Below are positions 31,815-46,442 of a stretch of 64,000 nt of DNA, one piece after another. The stretch is from contig JAWKIR010000002.1 in the NCBI GenBank assembly GCA_041394245.1, forward strand, positions 1,412,305 through 1,476,304, in the 5' to 3' direction. The notes below the pieces were generated by a model, which worked only from the letters and a program-made list of their open reading frames with translations, was not told the DNA's origin and did no database searches. Made by a program: the position numbers and the translations under genes. This DNA is from Acidimicrobiales bacterium (GTDB lineage: Bacteria > Actinomycetota > Acidimicrobiia > Acidimicrobiales > Aldehydirespiratoraceae). Position 1 is the first letter of the stretch. Every line of letters begins with the position of its first letter.

Positions 31815-32201
31815 CTAGGGGTGCGTCGGTCGGGCCTGTTCGAGGCGAAGCTCGACACCGCAGGTCGCACCGAGCTCGGTCAACGGCGCCCGCACCGAGG
31901 TTTCGGCATCCCACACCCACGCCTCGACCTCGTCGAGCCACTCCTCGAAGGCGAGCGCCTCGTTGATCCGCTTGCGCACGAAACGAGCGGCGTCGACGGT
32001 CGTCACCGCCGCGTCGATGACGCGTTCGCTCGCGTCACGGTCGGGAGCGGCGGCCACCTCCGGCGCGAGCGCAAGGGCCGACTCCACGCCGGCCGCGGCC
32101 AGCGCCTCGAGCTTTTGCGCCTCGGCCCGCTCGGAGTTCTTGCGCTCACGACGTCGAGCCTTCTTGCGCTCTTCCTTGGACTTGCCCATGGGCTCGGTCA
32201 T
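31815..32201 (-). CDS. hypothetical protein with a Lys/Arg-rich N-terminus
   Basis: Protein-like composition, unlike the overlapping + strand ORF. No family recognised. Start uncertain (32201 or 32189). Confidence 0.45.
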   Translation of the reverse strand: MTEPMGKSKEERKKARRRERKNSERAEAQKLEALAAAGVESALALAPEVAAAPDRDASERVIDAAVTTVDAARFVRKRINEALAFEEWLDEVEAWVWDAETSVRAPLTELGATCGVELRLEQARPTHP

Positions 32202-32282: not shown

Positions 32283-34394
32283 GTGCGTGTGGCAGCACTC
32301 GACGACGCGGATCGGCTCGCGGCGCTCCAGGACAGCGGCCTCCTCGGTGGTGACCCGCTTCCCGGTCTCGACGGCGTGCTTCGCATCGCTCGCCATGTCA
32401 TGGGCACATCGACGGTCATGTTCACCGCAGTCGACGTCGACCGCCAGGTGTTCGTCGACCACATCGGTCTGAACGAGGCCTGGGCGAGCGCCGGCCAGAC
32501 CCCGCTGTCGCACTCGTACTGTCGCCTGGTCGTCACGGGAGACGCGCCGTTGGTCGTACGCGACGCTCCGAACGACGAACGGGTGCGGAACAACCCGGCG
32601 ACCGCCGAGGCGAGCATCGGCGCCTACCTCGGCGTGCCCGTGCGATCCGTCGACGGCCACATCCTCGGTTCGCTGTGTGCGCTCGACGGCTCCCCCCGCG
32701 CCTGGACGAACGACCAGATCCGCGTCCTGACGGATCTCGCCGGTGCCATCGAGGTCGAACTCACTCTGCGCGACACCACCAGGGAGCTGGCCGACCGACT
32801 GACATCGGAGTCGCTCGAACGGGGGTTCGAGGAGTCGATGACCGCCCTCGCGGCGGCGACGTCGCGATCATGGACCGTCGACGCGGTGGTGCGCTCCATC
32901 GTCGAGAACGCGAAGGCGGCCACCGGCGCCGCGGTGGTCACCGTTGCCCTCCACGAGGACGACACCCTTCGCATCTTCGATGCCCGGGAGCCTGGCACGA
33001 GCGGCGAGGACGGATGGCACACGACCGACATCGACACCCCGTCGCCCATGACCGACGCGGCACGCAACGGGCGGACACTGATCCTCCCGGACCCACCGGC
33101 GATGGCCGAGTGGCCCGAGTTCGCCGACACGATGGCGGACCTCGACCTGCAGTCCTACATCGCGATGCCGGTGGGCACGACCGACAGCGGAGCGAGGGCG
33201 GTCATCGGCGTCGGCTGGACGAGCCCGATGAAGAGCCGCGACATGCCGCGCCCGGTCGCCCGTCTCGCCACACTGGCTCGACACGGGCTCGATCGGGCCC
33301 ACAGCCACGAGACGGCGCGGGTCCATGCCGAACTCCTCGAGACCCTCGTCCTACCCGAGACACTCCCGTCGGTTCCTGATCTCGACATCGCGGGGGTCTA
33401 TCTTCCGCCCTCGGCCGGCCAGCGGGTCGGCGGCGACCTCTACGACGCCGTGACCCGCGACGACGGGCGCATCGCGTTGATCGTCGCCGATGCGGCCGGC
33501 CACGACGTCGTCGGCTCGCTCGTCACCAGCCGGGTGCGCAACGCCTTCACGATGTTGTCCCTCGACCTTCGCAGCCCCGCCCACACGATGCGCGCCATCA
33601 ATCGCTACCTGATGCGCTCGACCATCACGACACACATCACCGCCGTCGTGGCGCTCGTCGATCTCGAAACCGGCACCGTGACCATCGCGAACGCCGGCCA
33701 CCTCCAACCCCGGCTGCGCCGCGCCGACGGGCGGGTCGATCGCGTCGGTCCGGCCGGAGAACCACTGCTCGGCCTCCAGACATTCGACTATCACGAAGCC
33801 GAGGTGCCCTTCGACGAGGGCGACAGACTACTCCTGTTCACCGACGGCCTGATCGAGTGGCGGGACCGACCGCTGACGGCGAGCGAGCAGGCGCTCGACG
33901 ACATGCTCGGCGCCCTCGGCACGGAAGGATCAGCCGCCGCCGTGGATCGCCTCTCGTCGGCGCTGCCCTCACGGGACGACGATCTGGCGCTGATGCTGCT
34001 CACGCGGCGCGCTCCGGCACGCGACCACGGGCTCGAGTTGGAGTGGCCGGCCGCCGAGATCTCGCTCGGCAACGCCCGGTCTCGATTGTCGCGATGGCTG
34101 GACGGTCATCCGCGGCTCGACGACATCGTGTTGATCGCGACCGAGCTCCTCACCAACGCCCGCACGGCCAGCGACCGGCCCGACCGACCGGTGACGCTCC
34201 GCGCCTCCCGAGACGACCACTCGGTGTGCCTACGCGTCACGAACCACGGTCCGGCACTCCCGACGGGGACACCGCCGATGCCCGACGCAGCGAACATCCG
34301 CGGACGAGGCCTCGCAATCGTCGCCGCGGTCGCAGACCTGCGCATCGAGAACGTCGACGGCCAGGTGACGGTCGAGGCCCGTCTGTCCGACTAG
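32283..34394 (+). CDS. multidomain partner-switching regulator: GAF-GAF-PP2C (SpoIIE) phosphatase-RsbW-like HATPase domain
   Basis: Two GAF-like sensor regions. PP2C motifs GGDLYD, ADAAGHD, LFTDGL. C-terminal TELLTNA N-box and GRGLAIVAAVAD G2-like box. Confidence 0.8.
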   Translation: MRVAALDDADRLAALQDSGLLGGDPLPGLDGVLRIARHVMGTSTVMFTAVDVDRQVFVDHIGLNEAWASAGQTPLSHSYCRLVVTGDAPLVVRDAPNDERVRNNPATAEASIGAYLGVPVRSVDGHILGSLCALDGSPRAWTNDQIRVLTDLAGAIEVELTLRDTTRELADRLTSESLERGFEESMTALAAATSRSWTVDAVVRSIVENAKAATGAAVVTVALHEDDTLRIFDAREPGTSGEDGWHTTDIDTPSPMTDAARNGRTLILPDPPAMAEWPEFADTMADLDLQSYIAMPVGTTDSGARAVIGVGWTSPMKSRDMPRPVARLATLARHGLDRAHSHETARVHAELLETLVLPETLPSVPDLDIAGVYLPPSAGQRVGGDLYDAVTRDDGRIALIVADAAGHDVVGSLVTSRVRNAFTMLSLDLRSPAHTMRAINRYLMRSTITTHITAVVALVDLETGTVTIANAGHLQPRLRRADGRVDRVGPAGEPLLGLQTFDYHEAEVPFDEGDRLLLFTDGLIEWRDRPLTASEQALDDMLGALGTEGSAAAVDRLSSALPSRDDDLALMLLTRRAPARDHGLELEWPAAEISLGNARSRLSRWLDGHPRLDDIVLIATELLTNARTASDRPDRPVTLRASRDDHSVCLRVTNHGPALPTGTPPMPDAANIRGRGLAIVAAVADLRIENVDGQVTVEARLSD

Positions 34395-35119
34395 GAGCGG
34401 TACTCGGGATTCTGGTCGGCCGCATTCGTGACGTGTGACCACTCCCCCACCGTGTTTCCCTCGGTCGGGAATCCTCCGCGGTCTCGCAGCATGCGGGCCG
34501 TGTGCATGAGGTTCCACGCCATGACCGTGCAGTTCTTGTTGGTGAACTCGCTGTCGTACCCGGCCGGTGTCGTCTGTCCGTCGATCTCGTCGCCGTAGCT
34601 GGGTCCGGGACCGATAGATCCGAGCCAGCCACAGTCCGCACCAGGAGGAATGACGTAGCCGATGTGTTGCAGGGCGTAGAGCACATCGCGGGCGACGGCC
34701 TTCACACCGTCCTCGTTGCCGGTCACGACACAGCCGGCCGTCTTGCCGTAGTACACGTACTGGCCCCGATCGTTGGTCTCGGCACTGTTCGCATACATCC
34801 GCTCGATCGCGAGCGTCGCCACACTCGACTTCGCTCCCAGCCAGATCGGCGAGCCGACCACCAGAATGTCGGCCGCCTCGATGCGGTCCTGGATCATCGG
34901 CCAGTCGTCGACCGGCGCGCTGTGTTCGGTCATGTCCTTGTCCATGCCGAAGGGGATCCGGTGGTCGAGTGCGTGCACCACCTCGACCGCGACCCCCTCG
35001 GCTTCCATGATCCCGGCCGCCCGCTGCACCAGTCGCATGGTGTGCGACTCGCTCGGGTCGCGTTTCAGCGAGCAGTTGAGGAAGAGGGCGGAGAGGTCGG
35101 AGAATCCCACGTCGGTCAT
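34391..35119 (-). CDS. flavodoxin-like NAD(P)H-dependent FMN reductase family protein
   Basis: Start MTDVGFSD (cat at 35117-19). ..LFLNCSLK.., ..ILVVGSPIWLG.. The stop overlaps the convergent upstream gene by 4 nt. Confidence 0.7.
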   Translation of the reverse strand: MTDVGFSDLSALFLNCSLKRDPSESHTMRLVQRAAGIMEAEGVAVEVVHALDHRIPFGMDKDMTEHSAPVDDWPMIQDRIEAADILVVGSPIWLGAKSSVATLAIERMYANSAETNDRGQYVYYGKTAGCVVTGNEDGVKAVARDVLYALQHIGYVIPPGADCGWLGSIGPGPSYGDEIDGQTTPAGYDSEFTNKNCTVMAWNLMHTARMLRDRGGFPTEGNTVGEWSHVTNAADQNPEYRS

Positions 35120-35128
35120 GGCCGGGCG

Positions 35129-35154
35129 ATACCCACCGACCGGCACCGGCAAAC
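35129..35154 (-). promoter_or_regulatory. SigF/SigB-type promoter candidate (GGTTT-N16-GGGTAT)
   Basis: Minus strand reads CAGGTTT GCCGGTGCCGGTCGGT GGGTAT CGCCCGGCC ATG. The -10 ends 9 nt before the ATG at 35119. Confidence 0.55.
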
Positions 35155-35160
35155 CTGCGG

Positions 35161-35202
35161 TTGCGTCAGGCCGCGATTGCGTCAGGCCACTATCGCGTCA
35201 GG
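35161..35202. repeat. three direct GCGTCAGG repeats with a 16-bp period
   Basis: ttGCGTCAGGcc (35161-72), ttGCGTCAGGcc (35177-88) and tcGCGTCAGG (35193-202). They lie just upstream of the -35 of the promoter candidate and overlap the antiporter stop codon. Confidence 0.6.
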
Positions 35203-36931
35203 AAGGCGCGCGGATGACGATCGCTCGTTCGTTCTCCCCGAGCGCCACCGATCGGCCTGCGAAGTGGACCCGGCCCGCGGCATCGATCACACACACGAGC
35301 TCGGAGTCGTCCTCACCCTCGTCGAGCGGGCCGTCGACGACGACGAGCGAAGCGCCCTGGGCGTAGAGCTCGCTGAGGCGTTCGGCATTGAGATGCTCGG
35401 GCAGGACGAGCCGCGGGTTCACAGTCTGCGTGGTCCCGGGTTCGGAGAGCGTTTCGAGCGCAGCGAGTCCGAAGACGTTGGCCGACCCGATCTCCTCGGC
35501 CAGGCGTTTCGCGCTGAACGCGTCGAGGTGGTCGGTTCCGGAGAGGACCACTCCCGTGCCGACCCCGATCGCAGCGATCGCTTCGTCGAATGCGTGACCG
35601 TCGAGCCTGCCCTGGAACGCGAGCAGACCGAGAGCAGCCGCCCGGTCGGCCTCCTCCTCGTCGAGTCCGAGCAACAGCGTCACCACACCGGCTTCGGTGA
35701 GTCGCTCGGCCAGCTCGATCGCGAACGGACTGCCGCCCACGATCGCCACACCGGAAGGTTCGGGCTTGGCGACCCTCAGTCGACGAGCGACCCCGCGGGC
35801 GAGCACGCTCGTCACGACGACGGTGGTCACGACCACCGTGAACACCGTGGGCACGAGGGGTCCGGGATCGATGCCCTCGTGGTCGAGTTCGATCGCGAAG
35901 AGCGACGCGACGGCCGCGGCGACCACACCGCGGGGCGCCATCACCATCAGGAAGCCCCGATCGGCTCGCCCCAATTGTGTGCCGATGGTAGAAGCCACGA
36001 CGGCCAGGGGGCGGGCGAGAACCATCAGGACAGCGGCGAGCAGGACCGAGGGAATCAGCCCATCGACCACCACGTCGAGGTCGACTCGCGCGCCGAGCAC
36101 GATGAACAGCACACCCAACACCGTGGTGCCGAGGTTCTCGTTGAATTCGGTGATGCGCGCCGCCGGAATGAACTGCTGGTTGGCGAAGGCCATTCCCAGC
36201 AACGTGACGGCCAACAAGCCTGCCTCCGGACGCAGCAGGTTCGCCGTAGCGAACGCGCCGAGCACCGCGGCCAGGGTGAGGGGCACGTGGAGACGGTCGG
36301 CGACGAGGCGACTCCGGAGCGCACCGACCAGCACCAGGGCGACGATCGCACCGACCACCGCACCGGCCCCGAAGGTGCTGAGGAGACGCAGGAGGATCCG
36401 GCCGACCGATCGCTCCTCGACGATCGCGTCGAGCACGCCGATCGCCAGCGAGGCACCGATGGGGTCGATCAGGATGCCTTCCCACTTCAGGACCGATCCG
36501 GCAGGCTCGCGGGGACGAACGACGCGCAGCAGCGGAGCGATCACGGTGGGGCCCGAGACCGTGAGGATGGCGGCCATGAGCACCGCGATGTCGGTGTCGA
36601 CATCGAAGAGCAGCAGCGTGAAGACGGTTCCCACCGCCCACGAGACGGCAACCCCGATCGTGACCAGGCGGAGTACCGGTTGACGCGCCGTCCCGAGGGA
36701 CTTCCAGTGCAACCCCGTCCCACCCTCGAAGAGGAGAATCGCGACTCCGAACGACACTCCGGTGAACAGCAGCTCACCGAAGATCTCGTCCGGGTCCATC
36801 ACTGTTCCCAGGCCCATGCCGGCGACCAGGAGGAACAGCACCGACGGAACCCGGAGTCGGGCACCGAGCATCTGGCATCCGATCGCTGCGCCGGCGATGA
36901 CGGCAACGGCGGTCTGTGGATCGGTGATCAT
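35198..36931 (-). CDS. cation:proton antiporter (CPA1, Na+/H+ exchanger family) with a C-terminal RCK/TrkA-N-like domain
   Basis: About 10-12 TM segments, then ..GVAIVGGSPFAIELAERL.. Rossmann-like cytosolic domain. Confidence 0.8.
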   Translation of the reverse strand: MITDPQTAVAVIAGAAIGCQMLGARLRVPSVLFLLVAGMGLGTVMDPDEIFGELLFTGVSFGVAILLFEGGTGLHWKSLGTARQPVLRLVTIGVAVSWAVGTVFTLLLFDVDTDIAVLMAAILTVSGPTVIAPLLRVVRPREPAGSVLKWEGILIDPIGASLAIGVLDAIVEERSVGRILLRLLSTFGAGAVVGAIVALVLVGALRSRLVADRLHVPLTLAAVLGAFATANLLRPEAGLLAVTLLGMAFANQQFIPAARITEFNENLGTTVLGVLFIVLGARVDLDVVVDGLIPSVLLAAVLMVLARPLAVVASTIGTQLGRADRGFLMVMAPRGVVAAAVASLFAIELDHEGIDPGPLVPTVFTVVVTTVVVTSVLARGVARRLRVAKPEPSGVAIVGGSPFAIELAERLTEAGVVTLLLGLDEEEADRAAALGLLAFQGRLDGHAFDEAIAAIGVGTGVVLSGTDHLDAFSAKRLAEEIGSANVFGLAALETLSEPGTTQTVNPRLVLPEHLNAERLSELYAQGASLVVVDGPLDEGEDDSELVCVIDAAGRVHFAGRSVALGENERAIVIRAPS

Positions 36932-37047
36932 CGAACGCCACCCCTCATCGCCTCGACGGCGAGCCGTCGACGCGCCTGCCGCGAGCGCGGCGCACCCGAT
37001 GAACGGATAGATTTCGCCCGAGCGTCGCGGAGCCCGGAGGACACATC

Positions 37048-37350
37048 GTGGAGATTCAGCCGATCGTGCAGGACGACGGCACCCGTGTCGCGGTGCACGG
37101 CGAAGCCGACGCCGACAATTGCCACGAACTCGGGGCCGCGCTCCTCGACGAGTCGTTGATCGGCCCCGTCCGTCTCGACCTGGCCGGGCTGTCGTTCCTC
37201 GACTCCTCGGCGGTCAGCGAGCTGCTCGGCATCCAGCAGGAGTTGGCGACACGCGGCATCGAACTGTCGATCGTCGAGACCTCGCCGGCCGTGCACCGCG
37301 TCCTCGAGATCACGGGCCTTCTCGACGTTTTCGGCATCGACGCGAGCTGA
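37048..37350 (+). CDS. STAS-domain anti-sigma-factor antagonist (RsbV/SpoIIAA/RsfA-RsfB-like)
   Basis: 100 aa, GTG start. ..LDLAGLSFLDSSAVSELL.. with the conserved Ser position. ..VLEITGL...F. Confidence 0.8.
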   Translation: MEIQPIVQDDGTRVAVHGEADADNCHELGAALLDESLIGPVRLDLAGLSFLDSSAVSELLGIQQELATRGIELSIVETSPAVHRVLEITGLLDVFGIDAS

Positions 37351-37357
37351 ACGCAAC

Positions 37358-38140
37358 TCAGCCCCGCCCGAGGCCCGTTGTGCCCGGCCCGATCTGCTCA
37401 CGGAGCGTCTCGAGCGAGCGTCGGATCAGGCGGCTCACGTGCATCTGGCTCACGCCGACCCGTTCGGCGATCTCCGATTGCGTGAGCGATCCTGCGAAGC
37501 GCAGCTCGAGAATCTCGCGTTCACGCGGCGGAAGGGTCTCGAGCAGACCACTGATCGCCATCTTGGTGTCGAACCGATCCACGTCGACATCGGTCGTCGT
37601 GAGAGCGGGTGGTGTCGCGCGGGGCGCCTCGTCGGCCGATGATGCCGCACTGTCGATGCTCGACGCCCGATAGGACCGCTGCACGTCGAGGGCCTCGAGT
37701 ACCGCGTCGGTGTCGAGTCCGGTCTCGGCGGCGATCTGATCCACGGTCGGTGACGCGCCGAGCCTGAGCGCCAGTTCGTCGACGACGGCGCGCACATGGA
37801 GCGATCGCTCCTGCAGCGACCGCGGAACGTGCACGGACCACGTGGCGTCGCGAAAGTAGCGCTTGAGCTCCCCGTCGATGGTCCGACCGGCGAAGGTGGA
37901 GAACTGCACGCCGATCGACGGGTCGAACCGGTCGACTGCCTTGACGAGTGCGAGCATCGCCACCTGACGGAGATCAGCGCTTTCGGCGCCACGGTCTCGG
38001 TAGCGAGCGGCGAAGTACTCGGCCAGCGGCACGAACGACTCGACGATCGCGTTGCGATTCGTCTCGCTCGGATCGGCGGCGAACGCCTCGAAGAGCCGGT
38101 CGCGATCCGAGGCGTTCGCCCCGGGTCGCTCAGACGGCAT
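37358..38140 (-). CDS. RNA polymerase sigma factor, SigB/SigF/SigG subfamily
   Basis: Start MPSERPG (cat at 38138-40). DLRQVAMLALVKAVDRFD, WSVHVPRSLQE, LTQSEIAERVGVSQMHVSRLIRRSL. Closely parallels M. tuberculosis SigF as I remember it. Confidence 0.9.
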   Translation of the reverse strand: MPSERPGANASDRDRLFEAFAADPSETNRNAIVESFVPLAEYFAARYRDRGAESADLRQVAMLALVKAVDRFDPSIGVQFSTFAGRTIDGELKRYFRDATWSVHVPRSLQERSLHVRAVVDELALRLGASPTVDQIAAETGLDTDAVLEALDVQRSYRASSIDSAASSADEAPRATPPALTTTDVDVDRFDTKMAISGLLETLPPREREILELRFAGSLTQSEIAERVGVSQMHVSRLIRRSLETLREQIGPGTTGLGRG

Positions 38141-38522
38141 CGACAGCGGCCTTGGCCTTCGACAGACGAATACGACGCCGTCCGCTCTCGGACTCGTCCA
38201 GCTGGAAGTCATCGACCGTCGCACCGAGGATCGCTTCGACGAGATCGTCGACACCGACCGGCGCGAGCGCCTCACCGGTGCGCACGCCGACGATCTCGAC
38301 CACGCCGTCGGACGCGTCGAGCGTCAACGTGACCTCGCCGCCGACCTCGTCGTCGGCCAGAAGCCAGGTGAGCGCCTCGGTGACGGCGAGACGGAGATCA
38401 TCGAGCTCCTCGACGTCGAACCCGGCCGCTGCGCCGACCGCGGCGGCATTCAACCGACCGACGACGAGATACCCCGGGCGAGCGGGAAACCCGATCCTGA
38501 GTTGATCGATCTCATTGGGCAC
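38130..38522 (-). CDS. anti-sigma factor, UsfX/RsbW-like with a degenerate HATPase fold
   Basis: GTG start behind GGAAGAGGA. Overlaps the sigma gene by 11 nt. DLRLAVTEALTWLL corresponds to the UsfX DLRLAVDEVCTRLI region. No DxGxG or G2 box seen. Confidence 0.65.
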   Translation of the reverse strand: MPNEIDQLRIGFPARPGYLVVGRLNAAAVGAAAGFDVEELDDLRLAVTEALTWLLADDEVGGEVTLTLDASDGVVEIVGVRTGEALAPVGVDDLVEAILGATVDDFQLDESESGRRRIRLSKAKAAVDAV

Positions 38523-38536
38523 AGCGTGTCCTCTTC

Positions 38537-38563
38537 CTGTGACGCGTCTTGCTGTGACGCGTC
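38537..38563. promoter_or_regulatory. two copies of CTGTGACGCGTC, each containing the 8-bp palindrome GACGCGTC
   Basis: 38537-48 and 38552-63, 15-bp period. They sit 15-41 nt upstream of the anti-sigma GTG. Confidence 0.4.
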
Positions 38564-38606
38564 GCCGGCACGAGGCGAAGCCTACGCGCCGGCGCGGTCC
38601 ATGGGC

Positions 38607-38750
38607 TCACGTGAAGACACTCACACCGCCGGGACCCACGAGCAGGCCGACGATGATCAGCACGGCACCGTAGGTGAACTGCTTGCGCACGACGGCGACG
38701 ATTCCGGAAACGACGAGGATGACGGCGAGGAGCCAGAGGAGAAACGACAT
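38607..38750 (-). CDS. small membrane protein (47 aa, GPGG motif)
   Basis: MSFLLWLLAVILVVSGIVAVVRKQFTYGAVLIIVGLLVGPGGVSVFT gives two TM helices. ATG behind AGGAATATCCC. Confidence 0.55.
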   Translation of the reverse strand: MSFLLWLLAVILVVSGIVAVVRKQFTYGAVLIIVGLLVGPGGVSVFT

Positions 38751-38798
38751 GGGATATTCCTGCTTTCTTGTGGTTGGTTCTTTGTGATGCTGGAAGGG

Positions 38799-38824
38799 GT
38801 ACCCGGAGCGCGGAGGTCCGAAAC
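38799..38824 (-). promoter_or_regulatory. SigF/SigB-type promoter candidate (GGGTTT-N16-GGGTAC)
   Basis: Minus strand reads CGGGTTT CGGACCTCCGCGCTCC GGGTAC, 48 nt upstream of the small-membrane-protein ATG. Confidence 0.55.
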
Positions 38825-38829
38825 CCGGT

Positions 38830-39273
38830 TCAATCGGCCCGTGCTTCGGCCATGCCGGCCCGGTAGGCGGTGGCGAGCGCCTGCTTCTCGATGTCGTCGA
38901 GCGCCTTTCCCGCCAGCTGGAACACCTCTTGTTCCTCCTCCCGGAGGTGATGCAGGAGGCGGTGCTCGAGCTCACGGGCGGTCACCAGGAACTGGGGTGC
39001 CGACATGTCGTAGCCGTCGAGCTGCTCGATGAAGTCCTCGAGTTCCTTGTGCTCGGCAACACTGTGACGCGCCATCTCCTGCGTCAGATCGTCACCCATC
39101 AGCGGCACGTAGAACTGACGTTCCTCGTGCACCGCGTGAGCGGACAACTCGTCCTTGAGTTCCTCGAACGAGGCCTCCCGGGCCTCGCTCGCGCCGGTTG
39201 TGTCGAGGAGCTCCCCGATCAGCCGACGCTGCCGTTCGTGGTCCTCGCGAAGCGCTTCGAAGATCGTCATCAT
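38830..39273 (-). CDS. hemerythrin HHE cation-binding domain protein
   Basis: Start MMTIFEAL behind AAGGA. ..REDHERQR.., ..HAVHEERQFY.., ..VAEHKELE.., ..LEHRLLHHLREEE.. His/Glu ligand pattern. Confidence 0.8.
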   Translation of the reverse strand: MMTIFEALREDHERQRRLIGELLDTTGASEAREASFEELKDELSAHAVHEERQFYVPLMGDDLTQEMARHSVAEHKELEDFIEQLDGYDMSAPQFLVTARELEHRLLHHLREEEQEVFQLAGKALDDIEKQALATAYRAGMAEARAD

Positions 39274-39339
39274 CTCGTGTCCTTTCAGGATTCCGACGTC
39301 TCGCCGTGGGCCGACGTCGTGGGCGGTGAGGGAGCGGAC

Positions 39340-39364
39340 GTACCCGACCGCGTCGGGTTCAAAC
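39340..39364 (-). promoter_or_regulatory. SigF/SigB-type promoter candidate (GGGTTT-N15-GGGTAC)
   Basis: Minus strand reads GGGGTTT GAACCCGACGCGGTC GGGTAC, 66 nt upstream of the hemerythrin ATG. Confidence 0.55.
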
Positions 39365-39397
39365 CCCCGTGTGGCCGATTGCGGGAGCATGCGCATC

Positions 39398-39423
39398 GTT
39401 TAGCTGCACGCGACGGCGGGTAT
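39398..39423 (+). promoter_or_regulatory. SigF/SigB-type promoter candidate (GTTT-N16-GGGTAT)
   Basis: ATCGTTT AGCTGCACGCGACGGC GGGTAT, 32 nt upstream of the ATG at 39456 (RBS AGGAGA). Confidence 0.6.
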
Positions 39424-39455
39424 GCCCGACGCGAACCCACACACAGGAGAACCCC

Positions 39456-39863
39456 ATGGGCGCCATCCGCAAGGCCTTGTCGATCACGACCCTCGGAGTC
39501 GTGAACTGGCGAAGCAAATCCGAACTGCTCGAGATCGAGCGTGCTGCGCTGGACGAGACGAGCGAGAAGCTCGCCGAGCAGCAGGCGAAGGCAGAACGCC
39601 TCGGCCGGCGGGCGAGGAAGGCCGAGAAGAGGGCCCGCAAGGCCGAGCTGAACGAGCTGAAGACCGCAAGGTCCGCCCGCCGCCGACGCCGCTTCCTGCG
39701 CCGCAAGCAGAAGGTGGCCCTCGCCGCGAAGGGCGCAACCGCGGATGCGAGCGCCGCCGCTTCCGCTCAGTCCCGACGCGCCCGTCGCAAGCTCCGCCGA
39801 GCGGAGAAGAAGGCTCGGTCGCAGGTCGACGCCGTCACCGACGCAGTCCACGACCTCGCCTGA
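39456..39863 (+). CDS. hypothetical Lys/Arg-rich coiled-coil-like protein (135 aa)
   Basis: ATG behind AGGAGA. ..AERLGRRARKAEKRARKAELNELKTARSARRRRRFLRRKQK... No family recognised. Confidence 0.55.
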   Translation: MGAIRKALSITTLGVVNWRSKSELLEIERAALDETSEKLAEQQAKAERLGRRARKAEKRARKAELNELKTARSARRRRRFLRRKQKVALAAKGATADASAAASAQSRRARRKLRRAEKKARSQVDAVTDAVHDLA

Positions 39864-39904
39864 GGTCTCTCACCAGGTCCTGTCACCGCCTGGCGAGCCG
39901 GCCG

Positions 39905-41335
39905 CTACGGTCCGATCATTCCGCGTTCGTCGGGGGCGAGCAGCCCCGTCGGCACGTCGGGATCCTCGAACGGCAGCGCGGGGCGGGAGTACTCGACCGT
40001 CCCGAGTGCCATGGTGAACAAGTCGACGGCGTCGCGCAGCACCGCTTCGTCGATGCCGTGCCGATCGGCGACGAGGTCGACCAGCTCCTCGCCCGATGCG
40101 CGGGCGTCACGTTGGGCGACGGCAGCGGCGTCGTAGCCGATCAGCGGCGCCAAGGCCGTCACGATCGCCTGTGATCCCTCTGCGAGCGCACGACACCGCT
40201 CGAGGTGGGGCACGACCTTCGCCACCACCTTCTCTGCGAGCATGTCGGCTGCTGCGGTCAGCAGATCCAGCGAGTCGAGCAGGTCGTGCACGATGAGCGG
40301 CAGGTAGGTGTTGAGTTCGAGCGCGCCGCGCGATCCGGCGTGGGTGATCCCAGCGTCGTTGCCGATGACTCGGGCGACGATCTGGTTCACCACCTCGGGA
40401 ATCACCGGGTTGACCTTGCCCGGCATGATCGACGACCCGGGTTGCAACTCCGGCAGCTCGATCTCGCCGAGACCGGCGGTCGGACCGCTCGCCATCAGCC
40501 GGAGATCGTTGGCGATCTTGTCGAGGGAACACGCGACGGTCTTCGCCCGTCCGGAGAGATCGACCAGGTCGTCGTGCGCTCCCTGGAGGGCGAAGTGGTT
40601 CGGACAGGGGGTCAGGTCGAGGCCGGTGGACACGGCGAGTTCGTGGATCGCCCGTTCGGCGTAGCCGGGCGGCGCATTGAGGCCGTTGCCGACCGCGGTC
40701 CCACCGAGCGGGAGCCGCCCCAGGTTCGCCATGAGCGAGTCGATCCGGGAGCGACCGTCGACCACCTGTTGGCGGTAGCCACCGAACTCCTGGCCGAGCG
40801 TGATCGGCACCGCGTCCTGCATGTGGGTGCGACCGACCTTCACGACGTGCCGGCTGTTGACCTCGTGCAACCCGAGCTCCCGCTCGAGCCGGGCGAGCGC
40901 GGACACGAGACGGTTCGCCGCCTCGAGCACTGCTATCCGGCTGCCGCTCGGCATCACGTCGTTGCTCGACTGCCCCAGATTCACATGATCGATCGGGTGA
41001 ACCGGGGTTCCGTCGAGGAGCTGTTCCGCCCGTGCCGCGACCACCTCGTTGACGTTCATGTGGGTCGATGTCGCCGAACCGGTCTGAAACACGTCGACGA
41101 CGAACTGGTCGTCCCATGCGCCGGTGCGGATCTCCTCACAGGCCGTGGCGATCGCCTCGGCGATCGGGCTCGGCAACCGTTCGGGCACCAGGTCGCACAG
41201 CACGCCGGCCGCCGCCGCCTTGATCCTCGCGACGGCGTGGACGACGGGGAGCGGGAACACGACACCGGACGCGTCGAAGTTCTCCACCGCCAGGCGGGTG
41301 TGCTCGCCGTAGAGGGGGACGCTGGGAGTCGTCAT
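39905..41335 (-). CDS. aspA: aspartate ammonia-lyase (class II fumarase/aspartase family)
   Basis: Start MTTPSVPLYGEH (cat at 41333-35). Signature GSSIMPGKVNPVIPEVVNQ is aspartase-type rather than the fumarase PTQCEA type. ATGA overlap with the upstream gene. Confidence 0.75.
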   Translation of the reverse strand: MTTPSVPLYGEHTRLAVENFDASGVVFPLPVVHAVARIKAAAAGVLCDLVPERLPSPIAEAIATACEEIRTGAWDDQFVVDVFQTGSATSTHMNVNEVVAARAEQLLDGTPVHPIDHVNLGQSSNDVMPSGSRIAVLEAANRLVSALARLERELGLHEVNSRHVVKVGRTHMQDAVPITLGQEFGGYRQQVVDGRSRIDSLMANLGRLPLGGTAVGNGLNAPPGYAERAIHELAVSTGLDLTPCPNHFALQGAHDDLVDLSGRAKTVACSLDKIANDLRLMASGPTAGLGEIELPELQPGSSIMPGKVNPVIPEVVNQIVARVIGNDAGITHAGSRGALELNTYLPLIVHDLLDSLDLLTAAADMLAEKVVAKVVPHLERCRALAEGSQAIVTALAPLIGYDAAAVAQRDARASGEELVDLVADRHGIDEAVLRDAVDLFTMALGTVEYSRPALPFEDPDVPTGLLAPDERGMIGP

Positions 41336-42747
41336 CCTCCGTCCTCGCCGAACGTCCGGTCTCTGGATGTTGCGGGGAACCGACCTGACCAGGGCGTCTC
41401 TGTCGTCCAGTCGGGCTGCACATCGGCATGCGCTCCATCGATGATCGCCCGACCGTCGACGAGGTCGACCAGCGGCGCGACCACGGGATCCGGACCCGAC
41501 CGCACACCGGCCGGGTCGGCCAACGCGTCCGGGAAGAAGGCGAGGAGTCCGTCGACGACACCCTGGATCTGGCCGGCGAGCCCGCACCGGGCACCTTCGA
41601 CCACCCTGGCCGACGAGACCTGGAGGGATTCGGCGACCGCGGGCAGGCGTTCGGCGCCGCTCCTGGCCGCGTCCAGGTGACCGGCGATCGCCAGACCCTC
41701 GGTCTTGCAGGGCAGGCACTGTCCGCAGCTCTCGACCGACAGGAACGAGGCGGCTGCCCGCGCGATCGCAACCGGATGGGTCCCCTTCGCGAAGACCCGG
41801 ATCGCCGCCGCGCCGATCGGCAGCGACGTCTCGGCGTCGGGTTGTGGGACCATCGGTCTGTCGAGGTGACCGGCCGGGATCAGCGGATACGACACGCCGT
41901 TGAGCACGGCCGCGGCATCATCGGCGCCGTCGCCGACCACGTCGCGCAACGAGGTGCCGACCGGGAACTCCTCGACTCCGGCGACAGGAACGTCGCCGCT
42001 GACGGTGGCGAGAAAGGTCGCCACCGGCCATTCGGGACGATCCGCACCGTGATACCGGATCACGTGAGCGACACGAGCAAGCGTTTCGACATTGTGGACG
42101 AGCGCGGGCGGCGGCAGGGTCCCCTCGTCGAACGGCGCAGCCATCGCAGTCGACGCGGGCGATCCCGTCCCGTCCATGTCGAGCGCGCCATGTCGCCATG
42201 GTGGTCCGATACGAGGGAAGGGCTGATGGCCGACGACCACCTCGAGCAGCGCAGACTCCTCGCCGAACAGGTACCGGTCGGGCCCGTAGACGAACACCAC
42301 CTCGGCAATGCGCTCGGTCGCCAACGCCTGCACCTCCGCTACCGCCGACTTCAGTCGGGCGACCTCGGTCGCGAAGCTCTCCTTCGTCGCGATGACGATG
42401 GTGTCGGCCCCGACGGCGCGGGCGGCGATGACCGCTCCCTCGACGACCGAATAGGGGTCCCGGCGTATCAGCATTCGATCCTTGAACGAACCGGGCTCGC
42501 CCTCGGCCGCGTTCACGACCAGCGACGGCGCCGCCTCCACGGATCGGAAGCGGTTCGTCGTCCGCCACTTCGTCGCGACCGGGAACCACGCTCCCCCGCG
42601 GCCACGAAGACCGGCCTCGTCGATGACGTCGATCGTCGCTTCGGCGCCGAGGAGGGACGCTGCGAGGATCGCGTCGCCGGCTCGGGCTCGCAGGTGATGC
42701 GAGTACGACGCGACAGGGGCGGGCGGCAGCACGGAGTTCGGGTCCAT
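41332..42747 (-). CDS. NuoF-like (complex I 51-kDa subunit family) FMN/NADH/4Fe-4S protein, stand-alone
   Basis: GLRGRGGAWFPVATKW, NAAEGEPGSFKDR, YLFGEESALLE, ESCGQCLPCK. Start MDPNSV at 42747 (alternative 42777). Confidence 0.7.
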   Translation of the reverse strand: MDPNSVLPPAPVASYSHHLRARAGDAILAASLLGAEATIDVIDEAGLRGRGGAWFPVATKWRTTNRFRSVEAAPSLVVNAAEGEPGSFKDRMLIRRDPYSVVEGAVIAARAVGADTIVIATKESFATEVARLKSAVAEVQALATERIAEVVFVYGPDRYLFGEESALLEVVVGHQPFPRIGPPWRHGALDMDGTGSPASTAMAAPFDEGTLPPPALVHNVETLARVAHVIRYHGADRPEWPVATFLATVSGDVPVAGVEEFPVGTSLRDVVGDGADDAAAVLNGVSYPLIPAGHLDRPMVPQPDAETSLPIGAAAIRVFAKGTHPVAIARAAASFLSVESCGQCLPCKTEGLAIAGHLDAARSGAERLPAVAESLQVSSARVVEGARCGLAGQIQGVVDGLLAFFPDALADPAGVRSGPDPVVAPLVDLVDGRAIIDGAHADVQPDWTTETPWSGRFPATSRDRTFGEDGG

Positions 42748-42756
42748 GGCGCCGCC

Positions 42757-42782
42757 GTACCCCTGCGCCACGCCCATCAAAC
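42757..42782 (-). promoter_or_regulatory. SigF/SigB-type promoter candidate (GTTT-N16-GGGTAC)
   Basis: Minus strand reads CATGTTT GATGGGCGTGGCGCAG GGGTAC GGCGGCGCC ATG. The -10 ends 9 nt before the ATG at 42747. Confidence 0.5.
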
Positions 42783-42790
42783 ATGGCGGT

Positions 42791-42816
42791 GTTTGGCACG
42801 ACCGGTCGGCGGGTAG
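42791..42816 (+). promoter_or_regulatory. SigF/SigB-type promoter candidate (GTTT-N16-GGGTAG)
   Basis: GGTGTTT GGCACGACCGGTCGGC GGGTAG, 34 nt upstream of the ATG at 42851. Its -35 is back to back with the divergent -35. Confidence 0.5.
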
Positions 42817-42850
42817 GGCGACCATCGACCATCGACACTCGGAGCTGAAG

Positions 42851-43303
42851 ATGACACCGCACCCGACCGACTCGAGCCCACTCGACCCCACCTTCGCGAG
42901 AGGATCGGACACTCTCGTCACGGTGCTCGCCAGCGCCGCGGCCGCGGGGTACGCGACCGCCATGACGGTGTCTCCCGGTGCCGTGATGGTTTGCGGCAAC
43001 TGTGCCGAGCACGCTGCTGCGCGTGCCGTTTCCGTCGACCGCTACCGGCGTCTGGAAGGCGCCAGCGACGCAGCTGATCTCATGCTCGTCGCCTTGGTTC
43101 GCTGTCCTCACTGCGAGATCGGCGGCACGCTCACCTTCGGCTACGGGCCGAACTCGGGAGTCGACGACGACGATTTCCTGTCGGAACTGGATCTGGGCGA
43201 CGCAACGCAACGGGCTGACGGGTTTGTCGCCGACCACGAGGCCGCCGACCACGAGAGGGCCGGTCTCCGGGACCCGGACCACGCCCAAGGAGGAACGACG
43301 TGA
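42851..43303 (+). CDS. hypothetical Zn-ribbon protein (CxxC...CxxC)
   Basis: ATG behind GGAG. VCGNCAEH ... RCPHCEIG, 37 residues apart. Acidic C-terminus. GTGA overlap with the following USP gene. Confidence 0.55.
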   Translation: MTPHPTDSSPLDPTFARGSDTLVTVLASAAAAGYATAMTVSPGAVMVCGNCAEHAAARAVSVDRYRRLEGASDAADLMLVALVRCPHCEIGGTLTFGYGPNSGVDDDDFLSELDLGDATQRADGFVADHEAADHERAGLRDPDHAQGGTT

Positions 43304-43809
43304 AGATTCTGCTGGCAGTCGACGACAGTGCGACGAGCTACGAAGCAGCGCTCGTCGTCTCACAATGGTTCGGCGACGACGCGTCGATCGTGGCACTGCA
43401 CGTCGGCACCGTCACGCCGACACTCTCGTCGACGGAGCATCTGGCCGTCGGCGGGTCCGGCTACCCCGTGTTCGCGCTTCCCGCGCTGCGAGAACGCATG
43501 ACGGAGATCACGCGCGCGGCCCGTGAGGTCGCAGCTCGCGCCGCCAACCTCACGGACGGTTCGGTCCGCACGGAGCAGGGGGATCCGGCCGACGTCATCG
43601 TCGCGGTCGCGGCCGAGATAGATGCCGACCTCATCGTGGTCGGCACCGGAGATCGATCGTGGCTCTCCCGCCTGCTCAACCCGTCGGTGAGCTCGACCGT
43701 GGCCGAGAAGGCGCCGTGCTCGGTCCTCGTCGTCCGGTCCGGCGCACTGGGTGAATCGACACTGGGTGAATCGACACTGGGGGAATCGACAGTGGGGGAA
43801 CCGACATGA
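43300..43809 (+). CDS. universal stress protein (UspA family) with a C-terminal LGEST repeat
   Basis: MKILLAVDDS.., ..ADLIVVGT.., ..VAEKAPCSVLVV... Ends in ALGESTLGESTLGESTVGEPT. Confidence 0.8.
   Translation: MKILLAVDDSATSYEAALVVSQWFGDDASIVALHVGTVTPTLSSTEHLAVGGSGYPVFALPALRERMTEITRAAREVAARAANLTDGSVRTEQGDPADVIVAVAAEIDADLIVVGTGDRSWLSRLLNPSVSSTVAEKAPCSVLVVRSGALGESTLGESTLGESTVGEPT
43747..43806 (+). repeat. 15-bp tandem repeat x4 at the 3' end of the USP gene
   Basis: CTGGGTGAATCGACA, CTGGGTGAATCGACA, CTGGGGGAATCGACA, GTGGGGGAACCGACA. The last unit supplies the A of the next gene's ATG. Confidence 0.9.
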
Positions 43810-44843
43810 CAGCGGTGCATCCGCCCCGCGTGACCACGGCTGAACTCCAACACCTCGCCCGCGGGCAGGCACCGTTCGTGTCGATCTATGTCGACACCCG
43901 CACCGCGCACCGAGACACGCTCGTGCAGCGCGTCGCCGCCGTCGCCGACGGCCTCTGCGTCCTCGGCGCGCCGGACGACATCGTGCGTCGGACGACCACG
44001 GCGTTCCTGGCGCCGCCCGCCGATCGCGCCGGCCTCGCCGTTGTCGCGTCCAGCGACGGTCGGACCGTCGTCGCGTCCTCGCCCGAACCGTTCGAGCGGG
44101 ACGTCGGTTTGTACTCCCGGGTCCCGTACCTCGGGCCGATGATCGAGATCGCCCAACAATCGATCACACATGCCGTCGTGCGCGACACCGAGCACGGCGT
44201 GCCCGACCTCACGGTGTTCGGCGCGGACGGCAGCGTCCAGACGACCACCGCGGCGGCACCACAGCGCACCGACGACGTGCTCGCGGAAGTCGTTCGCCAC
44301 GATCCGGCCGTCGTTTTCGTCGTCGGAGACGCCCCGACGTCGATGGTCACCCACCTCGAGCGAATGGTCGCCGAGAACCGCCTCCGCCCCGACTGCAGGA
44401 TCGAGCCCCTCGACGAGGGAACCGACGACGACGTCGCCGACGCCGTCGTGCGCCACGCCGCCGGCGTGGTGGCCTCCCACAAGGTCGAGTTGCTGCGCGA
44501 GTTCCGCTTCGAACGCTCGCACGGGCGGGCCGTCGACGGCATCGACGCGGTTGTCGCGGCGGTCAACGCCGGACTGGTCGCCACCTTGATCCTCAACGCC
44601 GACCCCGACGACCATCGTCGGGCGATCGTCGGCTCCGAGGGAGACATCGTCCCCCTGGACGGTCCGGTCGCCTCTCCGTCACCCGCCGTCGACGAGGTCC
44701 CGCTCGTCGACGCGCTCATCTGGGCCACTCTGGCCCGCGGGGGCGCCGGCGCGGTCATCCCGACGACCGGCGACGGCGGACCGGCCGACGACATCGGAGC
44801 GCTGCTGATCCCGCGACCGGCGAACGGTCTCATCGACCGGTGA
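43806..44843 (+). CDS. bacterial eRF1-like (baeRF / Rv2629 / Balon-like) protein; the CDS is well supported but the function is tentative
   Basis: ATGA overlap with the USP gene. 345 aa. The N-terminus ..LQHLARGQAPFVSIYVDTRTAH.. resembles the ..GPWASVYLDTS.. start of actinobacterial proteins annotated Vms1/Ankzf1- or Rv2629-like (from memory). USP neighbourhood. Confidence 0.45.
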   Translation: MTAVHPPRVTTAELQHLARGQAPFVSIYVDTRTAHRDTLVQRVAAVADGLCVLGAPDDIVRRTTTAFLAPPADRAGLAVVASSDGRTVVASSPEPFERDVGLYSRVPYLGPMIEIAQQSITHAVVRDTEHGVPDLTVFGADGSVQTTTAAAPQRTDDVLAEVVRHDPAVVFVVGDAPTSMVTHLERMVAENRLRPDCRIEPLDEGTDDDVADAVVRHAAGVVASHKVELLREFRFERSHGRAVDGIDAVVAAVNAGLVATLILNADPDDHRRAIVGSEGDIVPLDGPVASPSPAVDEVPLVDALIWATLARGGAGAVIPTTGDGGPADDIGALLIPRPANGLIDR

Positions 44844-44870: not shown

Positions 44871-46442
44871 TCAGGGATGCGCCGTGCGGAACCGGACCTC
44901 TCGCTCGAGACTGGTCGACAGCAGACCGCTGCGCTCCTCCGCCGCGAAGACCTCCAGCTCGGCGCTCTCGCCGTCGGCGACGTGCAGCTCGATGTCGAGC
45001 CGCGTGTCGGAGATGGTCACTCCGGTGCGTTCCACGACCCGTCGATAGCTGCGATCGAGCCCGATGCCCACGCGCAGCAGCCCGGCCAGGACCCGCACCG
45101 TGTGCTGGTCCTGCTCTGGGAGGGCGGAGAACTCGAGATGACGGGGCCGCGGTTCGCTCTTGCGGTGATAGCGGGCGACGAGCGCGATCAGCTCGAGCTC
45201 CTGCTCGGTGAACCCCAACAATTGCTCGGAGTTGCGGATCAGGTAGTAGGAGTGCTTGTGGTGGGCGGCGTGTGCGATGAAACGCCCGACGTTGTGGAGG
45301 ACGCCGGCCGCCTCGAGGATCTCCCGCTCGGGCTCACCCAAACCGTGGATCGGGGCGGTCTCGTCGAACAGCCCGAGTGCAAGGTCGGTCGCGTGCTTCG
45401 CATGGGCGACGTCTTCGTCGAAGCGGTCCGCAACGGCGAGCACGCTGCGGCGCCGGAGGTCGGGAAGGTGATGCAGCGCGCCCTTCGCCCCGGCCCGTCG
45501 GTCCAGCCGATCGAGAACGACCCCCTCGCGTAGCGCGTTGGGTGACACCACCATCTCGTCGATGCCGAAGGCTCGGAACAGCTGCTGCAGCAGGATCGCG
45601 CCGGCGACGATCACATCGGCGCGTGCCTCGTCGAGCCCGGCGAGATCGGCGCGATCCTCCGGCGTCGGTCGTTCGACGAGGGCGTTCACCACCGAACTGA
45701 GTCCCTCACGGGTGAGCACCAGATTGTCGATCGTCCGCACTGTCCGGCCCTCCATTCGGGCTGCCATCGTGGCGACGGTCTCGATGGTCCCCGAGCAGCC
45801 GATCGCCACCTCGTGGCCCAGTGCCCCGACCTCGTTCGCGACCGTCGAGAGGAACGACTTCAGGTACGACTTCAGCTGCCTGACCGACCCCTCGGCGACG
45901 ACACCTCCGGGCATGAAGCCGTCGGTCAGCCGAATGTGACCGAGCTTCATCGAGCGGACCAGCAGGGGTTCGGTCTCGCAGCCGACCACGATCTCCGTCG
46001 ACCCACCCCCGATGTCGATGACCAGATGGTTGCCCGATCCGACTGCGACTGCACTGAGCGCGCCCAGATGGATGAGTCGCGCCTCCTCCACACCGGCGAT
46101 CACCTCGAGGCGCACACCGGTCCGGCGGCGCACCTCGCGCAGAAACGCACGCGGATCGGCCGACTCGCGGACCGCGCTCGTCGCTACCGCGACCAGTTCG
46201 GCGTCGTAGCCCGCCGCGATCTGGGCGAACCGATCGACGGCGGCGATGGCACGTTCCACCGCATCCGGATCGAGCGACTTCATGTCGCGCTCGCCCGACC
46301 CGAGGCGGACCTTCTCGCGATCGCGGGCGATCACGTCGAGCGGTCCGAGCGGCGTCGCCCGGGCGATGACGAGGTGGACGGAGTTCGTGCCGACGTCGAT
46401 CGCCGCGAGCGGTCGTTCGGCATCGGGACTCGTGTCTGTCAC
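44871..46442 (-). CDS. Ppx/GppA family exopolyphosphatase / guanosine pentaphosphate phosphohydrolase with a C-terminal HD-like region
   Basis: AAIDVGTNSVHLVI, IDIGGGSTE, GCSGT ASKHA-fold motifs. ..HHKHSYYLI.. in the C-domain. Confidence 0.85.
   Translation of the reverse strand: MTDTSPDAERPLAAIDVGTNSVHLVIARATPLGPLDVIARDREKVRLGSGERDMKSLDPDAVERAIAAVDRFAQIAAGYDAELVAVATSAVRESADPRAFLREVRRRTGVRLEVIAGVEEARLIHLGALSAVAVGSGNHLVIDIGGGSTEIVVGCETEPLLVRSMKLGHIRLTDGFMPGGVVAEGSVRQLKSYLKSFLSTVANEVGALGHEVAIGCSGTIETVATMAARMEGRTVRTIDNLVLTREGLSSVVNALVERPTPEDRADLAGLDEARADVIVAGAILLQQLFRAFGIDEMVVSPNALREGVVLDRLDRRAGAKGALHHLPDLRRRSVLAVADRFDEDVAHAKHATDLALGLFDETAPIHGLGEPEREILEAAGVLHNVGRFIAHAAHHKHSYYLIRNSEQLLGFTEQELELIALVARYHRKSEPRPRHLEFSALPEQDQHTVRVLAGLLRVGIGLDRSYRRVVERTGVTISDTRLDIELHVADGESAELEVFAAEERSGLLSTSLEREVRFRTAHP

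Follow-up and report, generated by a model that had tools for sequence, protein, structure and literature searches.

Does a sigma factor gene that lies among its own regulators and a set of promoter-matched target genes form a self-contained module, or is it simply the centre of a larger regulon, part of which happens to be close by? The question is raised by a 12.5-kb block (positions 32283-44843) in a 64-kb stretch of a 2.95-Mb source contig from an uncultured Acidimicrobiales bacterium; this whole stretch is called the window here. The block encodes a SigF-type sigma factor, an anti-sigma factor, a STAS antagonist and a sensor-like kinase/phosphatase fusion, interleaved with putative stress effectors. 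An earlier note on this DNA had taken it to be regulator and regulon packed into one compact unit. Our analysis points strongly to a different answer, namely that the block comprises the sigF locus of the chromosome and those members of the SigF (general stress) regulon that lie nearest to sigF. We see neither a conserved nor a mobile module in it, and the regulon probably extends beyond it. Because the window has a GC content of 68% with flat composition (0.67-0.70 along the 64 kb), genes were called by third-position GC and then checked against Pfam and NCBIfam, and all the genes listed in the earlier note were recovered at the positions and with the domains that it had given them.

SigF-type promoters in the window

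The evidence that ties the block together is a shared promoter motif. Scanning the window for GTTT-N14-19-GGGWA returned 6 sites in 64 kb where 0.75 are expected, and with 100 shuffles as background the shuffle maximum was 4. The motif is the experimentally derived SigF consensus of M. smegmatis, GTTT-N14-19-GGGTA (PMC4694148), and it is the one promoter type that the interleaved effectors share. All six sites lie between 35130 and 42815, a span of 7.7 kb, and they share GGGTA as the -10 element, with spacers of 15 or 16 nt. Each is intergenic and oriented toward a gene. They precede the genes for an FMN reductase (site at 35130-35154, minus strand), a small GPGG-motif membrane protein (38800-38824, minus), a hemerythrin (39341-39364, minus) and a lysine/arginine-rich (K/R-rich) protein (39398-39422, plus), and two operons, one for a NuoF-like protein and an aspartase (42758-42782, minus), the other for a Zn-ribbon protein, a universal stress protein (USP) and a baeRF-like protein (42791-42815, plus). 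Four of the six are arranged back to back as two divergent pairs, with 33 bp (39341-39422) and 8 bp (42758-42815) between the partners. In the FMN reductase and NuoF-like promoters exactly 10 nt lie between GGGTA and the ATG, and the two mRNAs are therefore probably leaderless. When one mismatch was allowed in either element, only three extra sites appeared in the rest of the window, all of them within coding sequence.

The motif thus sits before effectors and not before regulators. Neither the scan nor a reading of the upstream regions found a SigF-type site before the GAF-PP2C-kinase, STAS, anti-sigma-sigF or antiporter genes, and a search by eye for a degenerate version of the motif before the same genes found none; it met only TANNNT-like hexamers, which we discounted as promoter evidence. 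The earlier count of six motif-bearing units out of seven consequently holds for the six units but not for the total: with three regulator units and the antiporter lacking a promoter of this type, the fraction is six of about ten possible transcription units. Scans for consensus sigma-70 promoters and intrinsic terminators gave nothing useful, which is unsurprising at 68% GC.

Two intergenic regions carry short tandem repeats. The gap between the GPGG and anti-sigma genes (38523-38606, minus strand) contains two GC-rich hairpins (fold -46.7 kcal/mol, z = -2.5), the second of which is formed by two copies of CTGTGACGCGTC at a 15-nt period (38537 and 38552; span 38537-38563). This repeat has the palindromic core GACGCGTC and lies immediately before the start of the anti-sigma gene. 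The gap may be a terminator, an attenuator or a regulator-binding site. The other repeat, GCGTCAGG, is present in three copies with a 16-nt period (35163, 35179 and 35195; span 35163-35202) in the stretch from the stop codon of the antiporter gene to the promoter -35 element of the FMN reductase gene, and these copies could be an operator or a predicted RNA structure (fold z = -1.9).

The predicted partner switch

The sigma factor (37358-38140, minus strand) belongs to the SigB/SigF/SigG family (group 3), scoring 246.3 bits against TIGR02980 (cut-off 234.35). Regions 2, 3 and 4 are all present (PF04542, PF04539 and PF04545), and the start at 38140 agrees with that of homologues. Identity to actinobacterial SigF homologues is about 45-47%, and the match to the B. 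subtilis SigB model TIGR02941 (1.3e-53) is below cut-off. The closest solved full-length sigma factor is 8X6G chain H (2e-41), for which the PDB title says only 'RNA polymerase sigma factor'. Upstream lies a short RsbW/UsfX-like anti-sigma gene (38130-38522, minus, 130 amino acids) that overlaps the sigma start by 11 nt, an arrangement also seen in L001-L003 (L labels denote related loci from species genomes and metagenomes). Its closest solved anti-sigma factor is the RsbW structure 6M36 (1e-5). In place of the N-box Asn, which binds ATP-Mg, the window protein has Trp; Asn is also missing from this position in the mycobacterial anti-SigF RsbW of the PDB.

The antagonist (37048-37350, plus strand) is RsfB/SpoIIAA-like, with 61 bits against ant_ant_sig TIGR00377, above cut-off. 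Its Ser53, the first Ser of a DSS motif, aligns with the phospho-serine of SpoIIAA in 1TH8, the position that is substituted in 1TID. The proposed sensor (32283-34394, plus) joins two GAF domains to a SpoIIE/PP2C phosphatase domain (1.4e-33), matched over its full length, and an RsbW-type kinase domain (HATPase_c_2, 7.6e-11) in which a reading of the sequence finds the E...N of the N-box retained. This GAF-GAF-PP2C-kinase architecture is rare: we found 12 full-length orthologues of the same architecture at 37-62% identity, and the gene follows anti-sigma-sigF directly in L001 and lies a few kb away in L003. In the window it is convergent with the FMN reductase gene, and the stop codons of the two genes are shared in the palindrome CTAG (34391-34394). 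Family scores, the STAS serine, the loss of the N-box Asn and the domains of the fusion all agree with the earlier assignment of these regulators to a SigF/UsfX/RsfB/Rv1364c-type set, and by sequence they form a partner switch of the mycobacterial type.

We propose that the group-3 sigma factor would be held inactive by its co-translated, UsfX/RsbW1-like anti-sigma factor, which would not itself act as a kinase. Unphosphorylated STAS protein would take the anti-sigma factor away and so free the sigma factor, and the GAF-GAF-PP2C-kinase fusion would set the phosphorylation of Ser53, its kinase and phosphatase domains working in opposition and a GAF ligand shifting the balance between them. RNA polymerase carrying the free sigma factor would then start at the six GTTT-N15-16-GGGTA promoters, and the products, from the FMN reductase, GPGG peptide, hemerythrin and K/R-rich protein to the NuoF-like/aspartase pair and the Zn-ribbon/USP/degenerate baeRF set, would mount a redox, respiration-arrest and translation-quiescence response. 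From the gene content, domain and motif states, promoter-motif statistics and cassette conservation observed here we infer the protein-protein, kinase and phosphatase steps of this scheme, the dependence of the promoters on this sigma factor, the inducing signal and the roles of the effectors.

Several points weigh against this reading. The anti-sigma factor scores weakly, with 23.8 bits against HATPase_c_2 (cut-off 27.4, N-terminal half only) and 6e-8 against the RsbW models of NCBIfam; its position and size fit the RsbW type. The fusion kinase has an atypical G1 box (NHGPA) and may for that reason be inactive; the kinase of M. tuberculosis Rv1364c is inactive according to one study cited in PMC10950880. 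Autoregulation of sigF is uncertain, since the window has no SigF-type promoter directly upstream of anti-sigma-sigF and two strong hairpins separate that operon from the nearest one, the promoter of the GPGG gene; read-through from there into anti-sigma-sigF is possible. Finally, sequence does not decide which sigma factor reads the six promoters; Actinobacteria can carry several cross-recognising SigB/F paralogues (PMC8346170).

Promoters and cassettes in relatives

If the block were the whole regulon, the motif should be confined to it, and all six clean sites do indeed fall within the 12.5 kb, with none in the other 51.5 kb of the window. The source genome is also small, with a contig of 2.95 Mb, which again would suit a regulator and complete regulon that are packaged together and kept or moved as a unit. 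To judge such figures we have a cross-locus count of the strict motif GTTT-N15-17-GGGTA in 80 sigF-centred genome loci, for which 814 kb of NuoF-centred loci, mostly from Acidimicrobiia, served as control. The sigF-centred loci contain 136 sites in 1.29 Mb (0.105 per kb) and the control loci 0.016 per kb. The density falls with distance from sigF, from 0.43 per kb at 0-1 kb to 0.10 at 1-2.5 kb, 0.06 at both 2.5-5 kb and 5-7.5 kb, and 0.03 at 7.5-10 kb, corresponding to a roughly 25-fold enrichment over the control within 1 kb of sigF and a 4-6-fold enrichment out to about 7 kb. For the 51.5 kb outside the block the control density predicts only ~0.8 sites, and finding zero there therefore says little about whether the regulon is confined. 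Spacer lengths among 212 sites in related loci are narrowly distributed (16 nt in 113, 15 nt in 64 and 17 nt in 35), as expected of a working promoter. Six to nine sites occur in each of L003, L010, L002, L022, L082 and L119, many of them as divergent pairs, and divergent SigF-type pairs with -35 elements 8-70 bp apart are found in the window, L010, L013, L021, L022, L082, L095, L243-L246 and L253. The window cluster is thus a compact instance of a general tendency of SigF-type promoters to gather around sigF. Nor is the packaging of regulator and targets without precedent, as had been supposed: in transcriptome data for M. smegmatis, 28 genes of the run MSMEG_1766-1804, which ends at rsbW-sigF, are already recorded as SigF-dependent (PMC4694148), and we did not find the sigF-proximal hot spot discussed as such in that paper.

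The relatives also argue against a unit that is conserved or moves as a whole, which the earlier note had left to a comparison of neighbourhoods across related genomes. The best match to the sigma factor has 63% identity among species genomes (L001) and 57% among metagenomes (L082), and the single result of an exact look-up was a Logan contig of 2.5 kb with the same sequence as the core. SRR28338158 contains the organism. With no close relatives at hand, synteny was judged from distant relatives and from effector-centred look-ups. The whole block was present in none of 160 sigF-centred loci. What the relatives share are parts of it, in varying order. Near sigF, L082 has a convergent STAS gene, an FMN reductase (76%) and a hemerythrin (64%); L003 has a hemerythrin (61%), a USP, a GAF-PP2C-kinase and a baeRF-like gene; L005 has an FMN reductase, a Zn-ribbon protein, a STAS protein and a hemerythrin; and L119 has STAS, GPGG, Zn-ribbon and USP genes. 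A GPGG gene stands beside the anti-sigma-sigF operon in L022 and L025, with homologues near sigF also in L119 and L128, and the promoter precedes it in L119 and L022. The baeRF-like homologue in L003 has a SigF-type promoter of its own.

Other cassettes occur away from sigF. In L244, L245 and L246 a NuoF-like gene (57%) faces a USP (60%)-Zn-ribbon (52%) pair as a divergent unit, on contigs of about 10 kb that carry no sigF. In L246 the NuoF-like gene is followed by an overlapping aspartase gene (62%). This pair had looked unique to the window, being absent from the 80 loci of a NuoF scan in GTDB species genomes, and we dropped that idea when the same overlapping pair turned up in the metagenome contig L246. 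The back-to-back SigF-type promoters are kept in L243-L246, and the 10-nt distance from GGGTA to ATG is kept in L246 (about 3029-3045). The promoter also precedes NuoF-like homologues in L175, L180, L186 and L200. Likewise, L248-L250 retain the GAF-PP2C-kinase and FMN reductase genes as a convergent pair; the two genes are 18 nt apart in L248 and overlap by 25 nt in L250, and no sigF lies within 10 kb upstream in L248. The FMN reductase orthologues are 76-87% identical in L082 and L248-L250, and their promoter is kept in L248 (about 12846-12862) and L250 (about 3486-3502), 11 nt from GGGTA to ATG. A spacing of 10-11 nt maintained at 57-83% protein identity predicts leaderless SigF-dependent mRNAs. 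Before the K/R-rich orthologue of L252/L253, GTTT-N15-GGGTA stands some 60 nt from the gene start; in L253 both this gene and a hemerythrin orthologue (62%) carry a SigF-type promoter, and no sigF lies within 6 kb of them. Promoter-gene cassettes thus recur while their neighbours vary, and the conserved unit is therefore the single promoter-gene cassette; the order of the cassettes and their linkage to sigF are, on this gene-order evidence, fluid. The NuoF-like/USP-Zn-ribbon and GAF-PP2C-kinase/FMN-reductase cassettes, both found without sigF within 3-10 kb, are examples. In relatives the motif furthermore precedes genes for Dps-like ferritin, CsbD, superoxide dismutase, aldehyde dehydrogenase, amino-acid decarboxylase, CBS, RsbW-like and STAS proteins. 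Dps, CsbD and superoxide dismutase are among those that the block does not encode, which suggests that further targets lie elsewhere in the source genome. Taken together, we consider it unlikely that the block is a self-contained module holding its complete regulon.

Less likely again is the possibility that the promoters are real but are read mainly by another SigB/F-type paralogue encoded elsewhere, the adjacency of sigF being secondary. Streptomyces SigB-type paralogues cross-recognise GGGTA-type promoters (PMC8346170), and the missing autoregulatory promoter upstream of anti-sigma-sigF would fit such an arrangement. The motif enrichment, however, peaks within 1 kb of the sigF homologues of the 80 loci and decays with distance, the motif precedes the anti-sigma gene or sigF itself in 15 loci, and no second SigB/F-type sigma factor was found among the scanned genes of the window. 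That the block is a horizontally acquired or mobile genomic island, as the fluid gene order around sigF between lineages might suggest, is very improbable given the flat GC content, flanks made up of ordinary metabolic genes, and a window in which no tRNA genes, meaningful flanking repeats, integrase or transposase were found. Chance matches in a GC-rich genome, conceivable for a motif with only 9 specified bases, are excluded, since 0/100 shuffles reach six, all sites are intergenic and correctly oriented, and orthologues in other organisms are preceded by conserved sites at the same spacing to the ATG.

Effectors, neighbours and known systems

With the block read as the sigF-proximal part of a larger regulon, the question becomes what these nearby targets might do. 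The FMN reductase gene (34391-35119, minus strand) encodes an NADPH-dependent FMN reductase family protein (PF03358 FMN_red, 8.7e-15). Next to it lies the gene for a CPA1-type cation/proton antiporter (35198-36931, minus; PF00999 Na_H_Exchanger, 1e-35), which has an uncharacterised C-terminal extension of about 190 amino acids and matches K+/H+ antiporter models of NCBIfam below their cut-offs. A 421-residue membrane protein beside the FMN reductase gene in L082 was considered as its counterpart and is not a homologue. The GPGG protein (38607-38750, minus; 47 amino acids) scores 79.5 bits against NF040511 (cut-off 33). The hemerythrin-domain protein (38830-39273, minus; PF01814, 7e-15) could be an effector or a feedback element, the latter because a hemerythrin-like protein represses sigF in M. 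smegmatis (PMC4295536). It also weakly matches the NCBIfam 'PA2171 family ribosome-binding persister protein' (2e-9; 37 bits, cut-off 190, and so not a member), a match that we regard as a lead on account of the baeRF-like gene nearby.

The K/R-rich protein (39456-39863, plus; 135 amino acids, predicted coiled coil) has no Pfam match and belongs to an uncharacterised family of about 40 small proteins, some of them from Acidimicrobiales, that is without a Pfam entry. An alignment shows a nearly invariant N-terminus, MGxIRKTxSIxTLGxVNxRSKxE, followed by a basic coiled coil. The stand-alone NuoF-like protein (41332-42747, minus), an NADH/FMN/4Fe-4S module (Complex1_51K PF01512, 2e-34; NADH_4Fe-4S PF10589, 2e-8), retains the FMN, NADH and N3-cluster motifs by eye. 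Its gene is translationally coupled through an ATGA overlap to that of a class II aspartase/fumarase-family lyase (39905-41335, minus; Lyase_1, 5.7e-83), for which the best NCBIfam model is aspartate ammonia-lyase, below cut-off; this enzyme could supply fumarate. In L164, from an Actinomycetota metagenome-assembled genome, a distant sigF-like sigma gene (7490-8203, minus; 26% identity) lies directly downstream of, and convergent with, a NuoF-like homologue.

In the plus-strand operon, the genes for the C4 zinc-ribbon-like protein (42851-43303), the USP (43300-43809; PF00582, 1.2e-22) and the divergent bacterial aeRF1-like (baeRF) protein (43806-44843) are joined by GTGA and ATGA overlaps, respectively. 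The Zn-ribbon family is rare and uncharacterised; a search of 5.8 billion protein clusters gave 13 hits. Four Cys and the motif RRLEGASDAAD are invariant in it, and its gene always overlaps a USP gene, in the opposite order in relatives. An AlphaFold model of the Zn-ribbon protein has a pLDDT (predicted local distance difference test) of 80, with the core above 90, and a fold search with it gave no significant PDB match (best E = 0.07, TM-score below 0.3). Beyond its matched Usp domain (residues 2-146) the USP ends in the tandem peptide repeat GESTL GESTL GESTV GEPT (43750-43809). The eRF1-like label given earlier to the third protein is weak for the protein itself, which reaches 22.9 bits (1.3e-4) against PF18845, below the gathering cut-off of 31.5, and thus falls outside baeRF family 2/3 (PF18844/PF18845); the label is supported through a homologue in L095 (17900-18934), which matches baeRF_family2 at 2e-41 and the window protein at 4e-11 by BLASTP. 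The alignment shows that the catalytic-loop segment is deleted. A genome scan with the baeRF-like protein returned nothing, and a three-sequence alignment was too divergent to serve as a query. By analogy, the effectors suggest a redox/respiration-arrest and translation-quiescence response, and the hypoxia or respiration-stress flavour ascribed to them earlier is reasonable, because the SigF regulon of M. smegmatis is induced by respiration inhibition and hypoxia (PMC7693655, PMC10950880).

Outside the block the neighbours have ordinary functions: a PQQ propeller protein, a DegT aminotransferase, an MFS transporter, a short-chain dehydrogenase, Ppx/GppA, an LPG-synthase-like protein, SnoaL, an amidohydrolase and an ABC transporter. 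The Ppx/GppA phosphatase gene (44871-46442, minus; polyphosphate or (p)ppGpp metabolism) is convergent with the baeRF-like gene at the block edge and is without a SigF-type promoter. At the other edge, an open reading frame for 128 amino acids (31815-32201, minus) with good coding third-position GC and a very basic N-terminus (KSKEERKKARRRERK) is divergent from the GAF-PP2C-kinase gene; it has no family match, and a 67-residue gene occupies the equivalent position in L248 and L249. Rfam, tRNA and repeat searches of the window were empty or at chance level.

What does the locus add? It leaves the understanding of partner-switching systems unchanged, and its contribution is a modest one, made by the uncharacterised cassette proteins and the cross-locus statistics. 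It provides a clean, compact SigF-type switch and target set for Acidimicrobiia, a class in which the SigF and partner-switching literature we found reports no experiments, and it gives a SigF-type stress-control context to several unannotated families, namely the C4 Zn-ribbon, the K/R-rich MGxIRK, the stand-alone NuoF-like and the degenerate baeRF proteins. The promoter density across loci is a modest general observation, useful for regulon prediction in uncultured actinobacteria. A bolder view, which we think unlikely, is that the 12.5-kb block is the entire SigF regulon, a minimal stress response of six single-promoter cassettes, and that sigF-proximal hot spots of reshuffled cassettes are an organising principle across Actinomycetota that has not been explicitly stated before. 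If it were true, several cassettes of a minimal response would be families without known function (USP/C4 Zn-ribbon, NuoF-like-aspartase, loop-less baeRF and K/R-rich).

The closest known system is the mycobacterial one. Both combine a group-3 sigma factor with an overlapping upstream gene for an anti-sigma factor (a putative one in the window) that lacks kinase motifs, a separate phosphorylatable STAS protein, kinase and PP2C functions that other proteins supply or, in the window, would supply, the promoter consensus GTTT-N15-17-GGGTA and, near sigF, many targets, which in the window are predicted ones. The RsbW1 of M. smegmatis acts only as an anti-sigma factor, and a separate kinase, RsbW2, and the PP2C phosphatase RsfR act on Ser63 of RsfB (PMC7693655, PMC10950880). 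The window differs in that one protein joins the kinase and phosphatase domains to a pair of GAF domains, whereas in M. smegmatis RsbW2 is separate from a histidine-kinase-controlled receiver-PP2C protein. It also differs in showing no RsfA-type or RsbW3-type component, in having no SigF promoter directly before the anti-sigma gene, and in its effector set of NuoF-like/aspartase, USP/Zn-ribbon/baeRF and K/R-rich proteins. The M. tuberculosis SigF regulator Rv1364c is a multidomain protein of PAS, PP2C, GHKL kinase and STAS domains (PMC10950880). By domain description the window fusion resembles it in placing PP2C and an RsbW-type kinase in one polypeptide behind an N-terminal small-molecule sensor domain, but the sensor is GAF-GAF instead of PAS and the STAS protein is encoded by a separate gene 2.6 kb away; by architecture the fusion is an Rv1364c-like input and not an Rv1364c member.

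The partner-switching logic is also that of the B. subtilis SigB system (RsbV-RsbW-SigB, with RsbU/RsbP), and the CsbD and Dps targets in relatives are typical of a SigB-type regulon. In Bacillus, however, RsbW is both anti-sigma factor and kinase, whereas the window anti-sigma factor no longer has the N-box Asn; stressosome genes are absent, and the operon organisation is different. The baeRF-like protein, encoded at the end of the Zn-ribbon/USP operon, is a divergent member of the baeRF-1 clade, a group in which most baeRF families are predicted to be non-catalytic ribosome-binding factors for translational shutdown under stress (PMC6514570, Burroughs and Aravind). It is unlike that clade in scoring below the cut-off, in missing the loop segment entirely and in having a USP and a Zn-ribbon protein as its linked partners instead of the hibernation factor. 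Set against these systems, the locus is a compact example of the known SigF partner-switching system with part of its regulon adjacent, and not a new kind.

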